The notes beneath the pieces were generated by a model. That model saw only the letters and a program-made list of their open reading frames with translations. It had not been told where the DNA came from and did not search any database. A stretch of DNA of 8,799 bases. Origin: a virus. Its lineage: Duplodnaviria > Heunggongvirae > Uroviricota > Caudoviricetes. Within the stretch, counting starts at the first letter, position 1. The number at the start of each line of letters is the position of its first letter. This document shows, one piece after another, positions 4,666 to 8,799 of the stretch. A program made the translations under genes and the position numbers. The DNA lies in the IMG/VR virus record IMGVR_UViG_2534681774_000024; one strand, given 5' to 3'.

Positions 4666-4793
4666 CACAAAAAAACCGCTTGCCATGCCGCAATCAGTCA
4701 GGTTACATTTCCGCTGCACCTCATAAAACGGGTGCCGGGTTTCGCAGCCTGCTGACTACAAGAGCGCACAACCGCGCCAGCGGTTTTTTTGTG
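4666..4793. repeat. Perfect 15-bp inverted repeat pair (CACAAAAAAACCGCT at 4666-4680; reverse complement at 4779-4793) bracketing 98 bp
   Basis: Read directly from the sequence. Each arm contains a run of seven A (or T) next to CCGCT/AGCGG. Confidence 0.7.
4770..4790 (+). terminator. Candidate intrinsic terminator: AACCGC-GCCA-GCGGTT hairpin running into T7
   Basis: A 6-bp stem (4770-4775 / 4780-4785) with a 4-nt loop, followed by a T-run through 4790. The stem is short, so this is tentative. It sits about 120 bp downstream of the stop of ORF 4348-4647. Confidence 0.35.
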
Positions 4794-4969
4794 CGTACTG
4801 TATTGCCACGTTTTTTTCGCGTCAGAATTATGGCGGGGCGTACGGGGCCGACTTCGGTCGGGCCGGGATCTCTTGTAGCCGGTACTGCGAACCTCGTACG
4901 TCTCGCCACCCACAGTTTCGCAGCTCTGGATGGTGAGTTTTCACAACTTACTACAAGAGGCCACATATC

Positions 4970-5200
4970 ATGGCAAACCGCAAACAGCACCGCACTATCG
5001 CGGAGCGTCGTCACATCCAGACTGAAATCAACCGCAGACTTTCCCGCGCATTCCGCGTCGCTAAAATCATGCACATCAATATGCTGCATGAGCGTAGCTG
5101 CGAACTTTCAAACCTCTATTCATCCGCTGTTTTCAGCTATCTGGCGGATGATCTGCGCGAGCTTCAACAGCTCATCCAGCAGCAAAACAAACTCCATTAA
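4970..5200 (+). CDS. Hypothetical protein (76 aa), predicted helical
   Basis: ATG 4970 with AAGAGG 9 nt upstream. The product is Arg/Gln-rich but protein-like, whereas the overlapping frame (ORF 4659-5276) is Ser/Arg-rich and low-complexity. Confidence 0.5.
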   Translation: MANRKQHRTIAERRHIQTEINRRLSRAFRVAKIMHINMLHERSCELSNLYSSAVFSYLADDLRELQQLIQQQNKLH

Positions 5201-5644: not shown

Positions 5645-8468
5645 ATGACGGCAGAGTACATCAGGGACTGGCAACAACCGCGCCACGCAGTGGGACGTGA
5701 AGGAACGGGGATCCCCGTTCCTGAATCTGCGCTTTCTTCCTGGCTGGATGCCTACCGGGCAGAGAACGAGCGCCGCCAGGAAATGGCTGATGCGGCGTTC
5801 TCCGCCACGCCGCTGGGCAACCTGATTAATAAAAGCCTGGATGCACAGGAAAAACAGGACAAAACCATCACACTGGCAGGAGACGCCAGAAAACAGGCAC
5901 GCGGCGCGGTGGATGAAGCCATGGCCTCGCTGCGCCTGCTGCCGTCCTATCTGCGCGATCCGCTTATTCGCCACCTCTCCTTCCTGCGCAAAAAACAGGA
6001 AGTCGATCGCCGGAAAGGCAAAAAGAGCTGGCAGGCTGAACGCTACGCGCGCGGAACCCTGCGCAAAATATTCGAACGTCTGGACCGCACCGACCACCGC
6101 TGGCTGACACCGGGTTATCGCTCCCTTGCCGGACGCGAACGCCTGGATGATTTGCTTTACCTGCCGCAGCTCAACAAGCACCAGATACAGACGCTGGCCA
6201 CCATGACGGCGGCGATGTTCAGCAGCACCTTCGAAAAACTCTGCGATGGCTTTGGCGCGACTGATGGCGAACTGACCATGGATGTAACGCTGAAGGCGTA
6301 TCAGATGCTGGCCCGCATGGCGTTACACCTGCACGCCATGCCTCCACATTATGACGCACTGACAACAGACAAAGACCGGAGGAACGAACCGGACACGGAG
6401 CTGCTGCCGGGCGCAATCCTTCGCCTGACCTGTGCGGAATGGTGGAAACGCAAACTGTGGCTGTTACGTTGCGAGTGGAGAGAAGAACAACTCCGCGCCG
6501 CCTGTCTGGTTTCCAGAAAAACATCACCCTATCTGAGCCAGGACGCGTTAAGCGAGTTTCGCGCACAGCGCGAGAAAACACGCGATTTCCTGAAAAGTTT
6601 CATGCTGGAAAATGAAGACGGGTTCACGATTGATCTCGAGACAGTGTATTACGCGGGAGTAAGTAACCCGGTTCACCGTAAGGCAGAAATGATGGCCACC
6701 ATGAAGGGACTGGAACTTCTGGCCGAAGCCCCGTGGCGACAGAGCGGTGTTTCTGACTGTCACCTGCCCGTCAAAATACCACGCAACAACGGAGAACGGT
6801 CATCCGAACCCCAAATGGAACGGGGCCACCATGCGCGACTCCAGCGATTACCTGGTTAACACGTTTTTTGCGGCGGTCCGCAAAAAACTGAACCGCGACG
6901 GCCTGCGCTGGTATGGCATCCGCACGGTGGAGCCTCACCATGACGGAACCGTGCACTGGCATATGATGGTCTTTGCCCATCCGGAAGAAATCGACACCAT
7001 TGTGTCCCACACCCGCGATATTGCCATTCAGGAAGATCGTCACGAGCTGGGCGATGATATTACTCCGCGCTTTAAGGCGGAGTATGTAGACGGCTCAAAA
7101 GGCACGCCAACCAGCTACATCGCCACCTACATCGGAAAGAACCTGGACAGCCGCGCCGTGGATGGCATCGACCCGAAAACGGGCAAGCCACGCGTTGACC
7201 ACGAAACAGGAAAATCAATGGCCGAGAGCGTGGAGCGCGCCATCGGCTGGGCGCGCCTTCACCGGGTCCGCCAGTTCCAGTTCTTTGGCATTCCCTCCCG
7301 TCAGGTGTGGCGTGAACTCCGCCGCCTTGCCAGCCAGATGGCACGCAACCCGGAAGGCCCGCAACGGCTGAAGGATGACGCAATGGATGCGGTTCTTGCT
7401 GCCGCTGATGCCGGGTGTTTTGCCACCTACATTGAAAAACAGGGTGGCGTACTTGTTCCGCGCAAGGACTACCTGATTCGCACCGCCTACGACCTCGCAG
7501 ATGAGCTGAACGATTACGGCGAACAGAGTGTACAGATTTACGGGATCTGGTCGCCATTCATCGGGGAATCCTCCCGTGTGTGCACGCATCCGGATAACTG
7601 GAAGCTGGTAAGACGTAAACCGGAAGCGGAGGACAGCGCCCGCGAAAATGGTTTTGACCTTCAGGGCGGCCCTGCCGCCCCTTGGACTCGTGGCAATAAC
7701 TGTCCCCGTGTACAGGAAACGGACAACAACGGGACAGAACAGTCGGAAGAACGGCCAGCACCGTGGCCGCAGCTCCCTGACGGCGTTGAAGTGAACGAAT
7801 GGATGCGCTCACTGAAACGGCACGAACGCCGGGCGCTGATGCGTTCGCTTCGTGACAAACAGGCAAAAAACAGCAGTGATGAAATGCAGAGCTGGACACA
7901 GAGCCGCAAACAGCAGTGGCCTTTGCCTGATAACCACGAATTACTCGCTAAAGAATGGCGGAAGTCTGCTGAATCTCTCGGCCTGCATATCGGTGAACAA
8001 CAGATGCAGCACCTGTTACGGGGCGGCAGTCTGTACGTTGACGGCAGCATCATTGCACCGCAGGGATTTGAAATTGTACGCAAACCGGATACCCGCCCGG
8101 ACAGTCGAATCACGCAGCTCTGGCAGCGCCTGAGCCGTAATCATGGCGTAAGCAGCACGGAGATCCGCCATAACCCGGTCGCCAGCTATCTGGCACAGCT
8201 GGGGGCATCAGACCCTGAAGCCGCCGCACGCCTGGCATCCACACTTCAGCAGGACCAGAACACCATGAAAACACCCGTTACCGTGCTTTCTGACATGCTG
8301 CGCGCCATCCGCGACGCAGAGCACGCACAGAGAATCAGTGAAATCACTGAACGCGCCAGCCGCAAAGCAGACCTGCTGCGGGGTGGCCTGACCAGCGGAA
8401 ACAAAAAACAGACAGAAACGGGACTCACGAATCCCGTAAATGAGCAAAAAACGCGCAGCGATATATGA
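5645..8468 (+). pseudogene. A: P2 gene A-type rolling-circle replication initiator (HUH endonuclease), read in two frames with a frame change near 6729-6732
   Basis: ORF 5645-6859 (frame 2) and ORF 6747-8468 (frame 0) overlap by 113 nt. The downstream part carries FLTVTCPS, the HUH motif in GTVHWHMMVF, and a paired-tyrosine motif TSYIATYIGKN, matching what I recall of the P2 A / Phage_GPA family. Frame 0 is open from 6705. Removing one C from the CCCC run at 6729-6732 gives a continuous reading ...[27 protein letters not shown]... The 6747 start in the ORF track is a GTG inside this reading. Confidence 0.75.
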
Positions 8469-8513
8469 AGCGCGCACAAAACAGGCAAAAACGGGATTTC
8501 AGAATCCCGTAAA
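8402..8513. repeat. Two ~38-bp direct repeats (8402-8440 and 8477-8513), each with a palindromic core ACGGGA-N8-TCCCGT
   Basis: Copy 1: CAAAAAACAGACAGAAACGGGACTCACGAATCCCGTAAA, inside the 3' end of gene A. Copy 2: ACAAAACAGGCAAAAACGGGATTTCAGAATCCCGTAAA, intergenic; here the stem is a perfect 8 bp (ACGGGATT / AATCCCGT) with a 4-nt loop. On the minus strand each hairpin is followed by a T-run. Confidence 0.7.
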
Positions 8514-8544
8514 CGATTAATTAATCAACATAAGGAAAAGCGAC

Positions 8545-8799
8545 ATGAAAATTTGTATCGACGACGGCTCCACCAACATCAAGCTGGCATGGACTGAGAA
8601 CGGCGAATGCCGCAACGCCATCAGCCCGAACAGCTTCAAGTCGGAATGGTCTGCGCCGTTCGGTGGCTCGCAGCCTGCGAACTACATGCTTGATGGCGTG
8701 CGCTATGGTTTTGATCCGGTCAGCGATCGCTTTGTCCAGACGACCGACACGCAATACCAGTACAGCGATGTGAATATAATCGCCATTCACCACGCGCTG
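8545..8799 (+). CDS. parM: ParM/StbA-like actin-family ATPase, N-terminal 85 codons (3' end beyond the window)
   Basis: ATG 8545 with AAGGAAAA about 8 nt upstream; open to the window edge and in frame. The translation MKICIDDGSTNIKLAW...ISPNSFKSEW...YQYSDVNIIAIHHAL closely parallels the N-terminus of plasmid R1 ParM as I recall it (MLVFIDDGSTNIKLQW...WQYSDVNVVAVHHAL). It is not in the ORF track because it has no stop within the window. Confidence 0.8.
   Translation, partial: MKICIDDGSTNIKLAWTENGECRNAISPNSFKSEWSAPFGGSQPANYMLDGVRYGFDPVSDRFVQTTDTQYQYSDVNIIAIHHAL

Follow-up and report, generated by a model that had tools for sequence, protein, structure and literature searches.

In roughly a quarter of the P2-like phages of Escherichia coli, the interval from gpA to gpQ contains what Rousset et al. 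(2022; PMC9122126) described as a putative plasmid partitioning system, and in the paper on phage phiSM the gene is given as a fitness factor for 'plasmid stability and chromosome partitioning' (PMC6456863). The plasmid loci with which such a system invites comparison are the ParMRC (parA/stb) loci of R1, IncF, IncI and IncL/M plasmids, in which parM is followed by parR. Elements that are normally integrated may also carry partition genes of this general kind. The SXT/R391 integrative and conjugative elements encode SrpMRC, a type II-like partition system in which a small number of repeats, direct as well as inverted, precede the M gene and form the centromere (PMC4489591), and the integrated prophage CGP3 of Corynebacterium glutamicum encodes AlpAC/alpS, in which an actin-like protein works with a DNA-binding adaptor. 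The P1-like phage-plasmid D6, in turn, lives as a plasmid prophage of 91 kb and cannot do without partition, whereas the P88-like phages considered here integrate.

The cassette that we describe is the one seen by Rousset et al., and isolates that carry it include P88, phiSM and 520873. The first-pass annotation of this DNA, which had put the locus forward as a top candidate for an undescribed system, was mistaken on that point, since the presence of the cassette at the P2-like gpA-gpQ location is already published, RefSeq names the protein ParM, and PHROGs files both ParM and ParR under 'partition protein'. About every fourth complete E. coli genome contains the cassette, yet in the literature searched we found no functional study of P88-like parMR. 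To the published picture we add that parMR belongs to the phage backbone and is not cargo, that the truly variable slot begins only past parR, and that a specific 115-bp region can be named as a candidate centromere, which makes it testable.

We analysed a stretch of 8,799 nucleotides (IMG/VR record IMGVR_UViG_2534681774_000024, hereafter the window), which is 99.97% identical, with two substitutions and one extra base, to a locus in the chromosome of E. coli FDAARGOS_1059 (L001). The window ends inside parM, and L001 was used to read the truncated gene through past that end. From its left side the window holds the terminal part of an IS66-family IS679 transposase (46-666), inserted in the 3' end of the integrase gene; a tyrosine integrase on the minus strand (587-1585), whose C-terminal end is removed by IS679; a C-type HTH repressor, also on the minus strand (1619-1936); and a Cox-like gene (1948-2343). 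Small early ORFs then lead up to an isrK/C4 antisense-RNA pair recognised by Rfam (4716-4913), which is followed by the P2-type replication gene A (5645-8468, plus strand; Pfam Phage_GPA) and by the start of parM (8545-8799, plus strand), where the first 85 of its 319 codons are seen; the full gene lies at L001:20146-21105. Beyond this point the L001 prophage continues with a complete set of P2-type genes (Q, P, O, N, M, L, lysis, tail, D and ogr), with hok/gef and then a com/methyltransferase pair after ogr, and the insertion site of the whole lies between pheA-pheL and raiA. Gp17 of Escherichia phage P88 shares 99.4% identity with ParM, whose close phage matches all belong, by their taxonomy lines, to the genus Xuanwuvirus of the Peduoviridae. 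Judged by these sequence matches, the window prophage is P88-like (Xuanwuvirus, Peduoviridae, P2 family). The cassette is thus found inside an otherwise complete P2-like prophage, and the case of a plain co-integrated plasmid partition locus with no prophage context, which had been named beforehand as one that would undo the idea, does not apply.

The window's own copy of the prophage appears to be grounded or defective. The Pfam match of its integrase covers the profile no further than position 148 of 172. The IS679 insertion is common to the window and to L001, in which a leftover integrase fragment is found on the far side of the IS679 element; a prophage whose integrase is cut in this way is probably unable to excise. 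Gene A in the window differs from that of L001 by an extra C in the C-run at 6726-6729 (GAAGCCCCGTGG versus GAAGCCCGTGG in the alignment), which splits the gene into two ORFs (5645-6859 and 6747-8468). Both halves match Pfam Phage_GPA (E = 5e-63 and E = 4e-58), and L001 carries a single CDS of 940 aa. The extra base may be a mutation that has made gene A a pseudogene, or else a sequencing error in a homopolymer. If the integrase cut and the gene A frameshift are both real, the prophage would neither excise nor replicate, and parMR would probably be without a substrate in this host.

The early region of the window also contains two gathering-level Rfam matches on the plus strand, the Hfq-binding RNA isrK (4716-4790, 66.7 bits) and a C4 antisense RNA (4826-4913, 81.1 bits), and just downstream of them a 76-aa ORF (4970-5200, plus strand) whose P88 homologue is annotated as 'derepression protein'. 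Taken together they look like a P1/P7-type c4-RNA/antirepressor immunity module placed in a P2-like early operon.

The ATG of parM is at 8545, which is 76 nt past the TGA of gene A (8466-8468), and from there the frame stays open for 85 codons up to the window end. A Shine-Dalgarno-like AAGGA can be read from the sequence 8 nt before the ATG (8532-8536, plus strand). The 85 visible residues match positions 1-85 of the 158 positions of the Pfam profile StbA_N (PF06406) with E = 2e-41 and 142 bits, against a cut-off of 24.6 bits, a match that is far beyond chance, and the phosphate-1 motif IDDGSTNIKL is visible in this part of the protein. The ParM/StbA-like identity that the first-pass annotation had read from 8545-8799 is confirmed by the complete protein: the 319-aa ParM of L001 matches both StbA_N (E = 2e-82) and the ParM C-terminal domain (E = 1e-68) in Pfam, and a full-length match to R1 ParM (PDB 1mwk; E = 3e-93) covers residues 2-316. 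The actin-fold motifs that were to be sought in the full-length product are there, with IDDGST, DLGGTT and GGGAE aligned to their R1 counterparts, and the protein carries all those tested, namely phosphate-1, phosphate-2 and adenosine.

Despite this end-to-end alignment with conserved nucleotide-binding motifs, the phage protein is not close to any plasmid ParM that we retrieved. Identities to plasmid ParMs are only 47-53% among the best 5000 plasmid matches, with F-type plasmid ParMs at 47-48%, which indicates that the phage lineage is old and distinct. Among 50,697 phage records the only match outside this group is the ParM of the plasmid prophage D6, which is 48% identical over its full length.

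The partner gene lies outside the window. In L001 a 103-aa ORF begins 4 nt past the parM stop and matches Pfam Plasmid_stab_B (E = 1.5e-24) as well as phrog_2515 ('partition protein'), and we refer to it as parR; a sequence search of the PDB at E values up to 10 gave no match for its product. The alternative offered at the outset, that the element carries a type II partition module, is thereby supported. The gene order, parM and then parR, is that of the plasmid ParMRC loci, and the phage protein shares with plasmid ParRs the Plasmid_stab_B family and a C-terminal tail motif, but is shorter, with 103 aa as compared to 116-147 aa.

At least three allelic types of ParR exist (seen in L004, L014-L016, L018, L020, L030 and other loci). 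Their linkers are nearly unrelated, their first 14 residues are identical and their C-terminal tail is conserved, and the ParM that adjoins them is almost invariant. All types have in common the N-terminal MTTPTRRISFYLKP, the strand with which a ribbon-helix-helix adaptor would be expected to read DNA, and a C-terminal tail, NI(R/Q)a(L/F)FP(E/K), that can be aligned with the ends of plasmid ParRs (R1-type KKNAMKLIN, IncI RNNIKNLFPDDE and IncL/M RKNVQHLFPDDD). From what is known of R1, we take this tail to be the part that docks on ParM. The dN/dS ratio of parR is 0.14 in the N-terminal domain, 0.61 in the linker and 0.04 over the last 11 codons; constrained ends joined by a free linker are the pattern that a working ParR should show.

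Since the 400-bp A-parM junction was detected in 1304 (24%) of the 5426 complete genomes of E. coli, the description of an actin-like ATPase as an unusual occupant of this position cannot be upheld. When coverage of at least 80% is required of both, the gene A lineage is found in 1355 genomes and the A-parM junction in 1290, so that about 95% of the genomes with this gene A lineage carry an adjacent parM. A set of 88 loci combined genomes and isolated phages with the best 80 of 249 IMG/VR matches, which were all at least 98% identical and served the selection analysis and not a deep comparison; parM is directly 3' of gene A in all 88. In P88, phiSM, 520873 and others, parMR directly follows A and the genes past parR differ, and across 61 loci the stretch that separates the stop of parR from Q measures between 1.0 and 4.2 kb and falls into more than 30 length classes. 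In L001 the A to Q segment is cos-proximal, as in P2, and the placement of parM after gene A in the P2-like accessory interval was correctly recognised from the window. When the locus is followed past 8799 up to the next structural gene, as had been suggested, parM is completed, the small parR appears, and variable genes and then Q come after it. The variable part of L001 comprises a protein with a ClpX-type zinc finger, five small lambdoid 'moron'-type ORFs and a non-coding stretch of about 0.5 kb, after which the portal gene Q stands on the opposite strand.

The same slot has other contents elsewhere. PADLOC identifies the IetA/IetS defence system between parR and Q in L044 (7655-10938), L048 and L053, and the candidate system PDC-M11A/B in L089 (7439-8900), and in phiSM the slot holds a DUF4760 membrane protein (L007:5867-6385). 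Thus parMR is a fixed backbone component of P88-like phages and not exchangeable cargo, and the variable anti-phage slot starts past parR. The variable, exchangeable occupancy expected of hotspot cargo is seen in the latter and not in parMR, and where Rousset et al. (PMC9122126) list the cassette among the 'systems' of the hotspot, it behaves in our comparison as a module that stays the same and goes with a single lineage of gene A. The description, in the first-pass annotation, of the locus after gene A as an anti-phage hotspot of P2-like prophages holds insofar as the hotspot is real, with IetAS and PDC-M11 in it, but it begins only past parR and not at gene A.

These observations also bear on the suggestion that an uncharacterised anti-phage or exclusion system begins with the gene of the ParM-like ATPase. 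Defence systems are documented to cluster in the gpA-gpQ interval as a hotspot (PMC9122126), and relatives have IetAS and PDC-M11 in it, but we regard such a role for parMR as extremely unlikely. ParM, ParR and the six ORFs that follow them are without a PADLOC match, with the detection of IetAS and PDC-M11 in the relatives as a positive control, and for this reason the defence reading was dropped. In addition, the partner of ParM is a canonical ParR, ParM is orthodox along its whole length, and parMR is constant in position and sequence, whereas the defence genes sit past parR and vary. A search of the parMR-cargo region with Rfam at E values up to 0.1 gave no match.

The first gene of the slot in L001 (L001:21485-21817), directly after parR, encodes a protein of 110 aa that is also present in P88. 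Its ClpX-type C4 zinc finger (Pfam E = 8e-18) is preceded by an N-terminal part that has no assigned family, and the protein might interfere with host ClpX or with the adaptors of ClpX.

The parM gene is intact in 87 of the 88 loci, the exception being an error-ridden phage record, and its DNA is at least 95% identical across them. By pairwise Nei-Gojobori estimates dN/dS is 0.054 for parM and 0.25 for the last 300 codons of gene A, and parM is under strong purifying selection. We consider it very unlikely, although not to quite the same degree as a defence role, that the cassette is an inert relic of an old phage-plasmid recombination that travels with gene A and has no present function. An old acquisition would agree with the identity of no more than 53% to plasmid ParMs among the best 5000 plasmid matches. 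However, parM is more strictly constrained than gene A, the selection pattern in ParR is domain-specific, nearly every copy of parM is intact, and capsid size constrains phage genomes.

Plasmid parC and the repeats of the phage locus are alike in that both lie upstream of parM and consist of two blocks about 73 bp apart. In the window a 42-nt direct repeat is found once within the last codons of gene A (8402-8443) and again in the A-parM spacer (8475-8516), the copies being 73 nt apart, and each copy holds a 20-bp palindrome of the form ACGGGAyTynnGAATCCCGT (ACGGGACTCACGAATCCCGT at 8418-8437 and ACGGGATTTCAGAATCCCGT at 8491-8510). The palindrome pattern occurs at these two sites only in 40 kb, with 0.04 occurrences expected by chance, and no other repeat family stood out when the locus was searched for repeats. 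In about 85 loci the core GGATT-N4-AATCC is retained in both copies and its centre is variable, and 58 of 62 loci have their palindromes spaced by 73 nt. The parC of R1-type and IncL/M plasmid relatives consists of two iteron blocks that are 72-73 bp apart. A-tract phasing of about 10.5 bp reaches its strongest value of the window at the repeats, a value matched by 73 of 2000 shuffles. We propose the two palindromes, in the 115-bp region 8402-8516, as the candidate parC of the cassette.

Two of the loci show how the repeats change: L085 has a 73-bp deletion that leaves one repeat copy, and L052 has the same G-to-A change in both palindromes, a concerted change. The second 42-nt repeat, in another frame, gives KQAKTGFQNPVND followed by a stop, in parallel to the C-terminal KQTETGLTNPVNE of GpA, which indicates that the repeat originated when the 3' end of gene A was duplicated. 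A search across the loci for covariation of the palindrome sequence with the type of ParR found none, as is expected when the N-terminal strand of ParR is identical in all types.

The candidate centromere also departs from the plasmid arrangement. Plasmids have arrays of 10-11-bp iterons (10 x 11-bp in R1), whereas the phage candidate consists of two 20-bp palindromes, one of them inside gene A, and arrays of 10-11-bp iterons were not found upstream of parM. The loss of one of the two copies in L085 likewise speaks against the assignment. Plasmid parC encloses an autoregulated promoter, whereas in the phage no promoter was detected between the blocks, the promoter scan giving no sigma-70 consensus either upstream of parM or between the palindromes.

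Viewed on the minus strand, each palindrome is a weak terminator-like hairpin of -10.2 kcal/mol with a U-rich tail, so that the pair could simply stop antisense transcription. According to this explanation the palindromes would be intrinsic terminators that halt leftward transcription, coming from the late P-Q operon or from the cargo genes, before it enters gene A, and the real parC would be elsewhere or absent. The terminator-like form of both palindromes and the conservation of the stem with a variable loop fit this role, but there is no minus-strand gene upstream of the palindromes, and the stems are weak, with 8 bp of which 4 are G-C pairs. The 73-bp spacing of the palindromes, moreover, matches that of two-block plasmid parC, the position upstream of parM is the one that parC has in plasmid type II systems, and the locus offers no other repeat family that stands out. 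We therefore judge it improbable that the palindromes are terminators in place of a centromere; the two roles are not mutually exclusive. We retain the palindromes as the candidate parC in what follows.

The protein identities, the operon anatomy, the conservation, the purifying selection and the way in which the cassette is linked to gene A are the observations on which we base the explanation that we favour and consider probable, namely that parM and parR form a canonical type II (ParMRC-type) partition cassette that serves extrachromosomal phage circles and is part of the backbone of P88-like phages. With the palindromes taken as parC, we would picture the mechanism, the stage at which the cassette is expressed and what it does for the phage as follows. 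ParR, a small adaptor of the ribbon-helix-helix type, would bind the centromere-like site that straddles the gene A stop codon; ATP-bound ParM would polymerise into actin-like filaments, whose ends would be captured by the conserved C-terminal tail of ParR; and the growing filaments would push sister DNA circles apart.

With regard to timing, neither a promoter nor a plus-strand terminator was detected by the scans between gene A and parM, which indicates that the cassette probably belongs to the early replication operon, co-transcription of A and parM being deduced here from the absence of a promoter. Membership in the early operon implies that parMR would be made after infection or induction and would be silent in a repressed lysogen, and expression at that stage implies in turn that the substrate would be the free circular phage genome. 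Replication of P2-type phages yields monomeric circles. The benefit would likely be that unintegrated or excised genomes reach both daughter cells, or that they spread through the cell for efficient replication.

By analogy, two described systems are precedents that partition genes of this kind can serve integrating elements. The srpMRC genes of the SXT/R391 elements come to expression only when the ICE is activated, and they stabilise its excised form (PMC4489591). Their products are no more than distant relatives of ParM and ParR, no domain can be recognised in SrpR, and they belong to a conjugative element and not to a phage; SrpMRC has been shown experimentally, whereas the phage cassette is known from sequence. 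AlpAC of CGP3 is induced early, tethers circular phage DNA to filaments and is required for efficient prophage replication (PMC4446434), but AlpC is a distant actin-like protein from a Gram-positive host, and its adaptor gene comes before the motor gene, unlike the order in parM-parR. The replicon itself also distinguishes our cassette from plasmid ParMRC, since it is carried by an integrating phage and not by a plasmid.

A stronger version of the explanation that we favour, also stated as a possibility by Rousset et al. 2022 (PMC9122126), is that P88-like phages are facultative plasmid prophages which ParMRC keeps as low-copy plasmids for many generations, for example when attB is absent or occupied. 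The ParM homologue of the plasmid prophage D6, at 48% identity, would be in line with this, and a complete P88-like genome of 34.5 kb has been deposited as the circular plasmid pZ1323PEC0009-2 (L002, NZ_CP148288.1) from an E. coli cat isolate; this single circular contig, however, may just be induced phage DNA. The A-parM junction is chromosomal at 1441 of its 1443 places in E. coli and on plasmids at the other 2, the integrase is retained in all these phages, and in a survey of PLSDB with the P2-like portal gene, the phage-sized P2-like 'plasmid' records were mostly not P88-like, several of them had no copy of this parM, and parMR-bearing phages were not enriched among them. With one P88-like circular record beside so many chromosomal places, the assemblies give no sign of a stable plasmid state, and extrachromosomal maintenance in lysogens is not what the chromosomal places, the integrase and the single 34.5-kb record point to. 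The rolling-circle replication driven by gene A is repressed in lysogens. A plasmid state would, to our knowledge, need a replication regime that is not known for P2. For these reasons we think a long-lived plasmid prophage unlikely and continue to favour the service of extrachromosomal phage circles after infection or induction.

A further match to a 'plasmid', of 26.8 kb in Shigella boydii, proved to be a linear fragment riddled with insertion sequences and was set aside as not informative.

The same phages also carry hok/gef, the other classic stability function of plasmid R1, which adds to the points in favour of a plasmid prophage. The hok/gef genes lie after ogr and beside the com/DNA-methyltransferase pair (L003:7415-7555 and L002:1291-1431). 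With parMR and hok/gef in one phage, homologues of both classic R1 stability loci are present, and we read this as a suggestive parallel with plasmid R1, and no more. Somewhat less doubtful than a plasmid prophage kept for many generations, but still tentative, is the broader idea that P88-like phages, which account for roughly one quarter of the P2-like prophages of E. coli, depend on ParM filaments and hok/gef for an episomal phase of their life cycle. When integration fails, such a phase could take the form of a carrier state or low-copy plasmid that is inherited; alternatively, it could consist of a filament-driven spacing of the replicating monomeric circles that is needed for a normal burst size or for lysogenisation. 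If this were true, P88-like phages would be very common unrecognised facultative phage-plasmids, or else the first Gram-negative counterpart of CGP3 AlpAC, and the view of the stability, loss and transfer of these prophages and of their defence cargo would change accordingly.

The search of genome contigs with ParM reached no distant phage relatives and returned three near-identical loci only, in E. albertii, in Salmonella and in a record titled Vagococcus. The last of these (L005, NZ_JBQPOM010000071.1), labelled Vagococcus sp. WN89Y, contains a P88-like enterobacterial parM locus at 97% identity, and the contig most likely reflects contamination or a mislabelled assembly.
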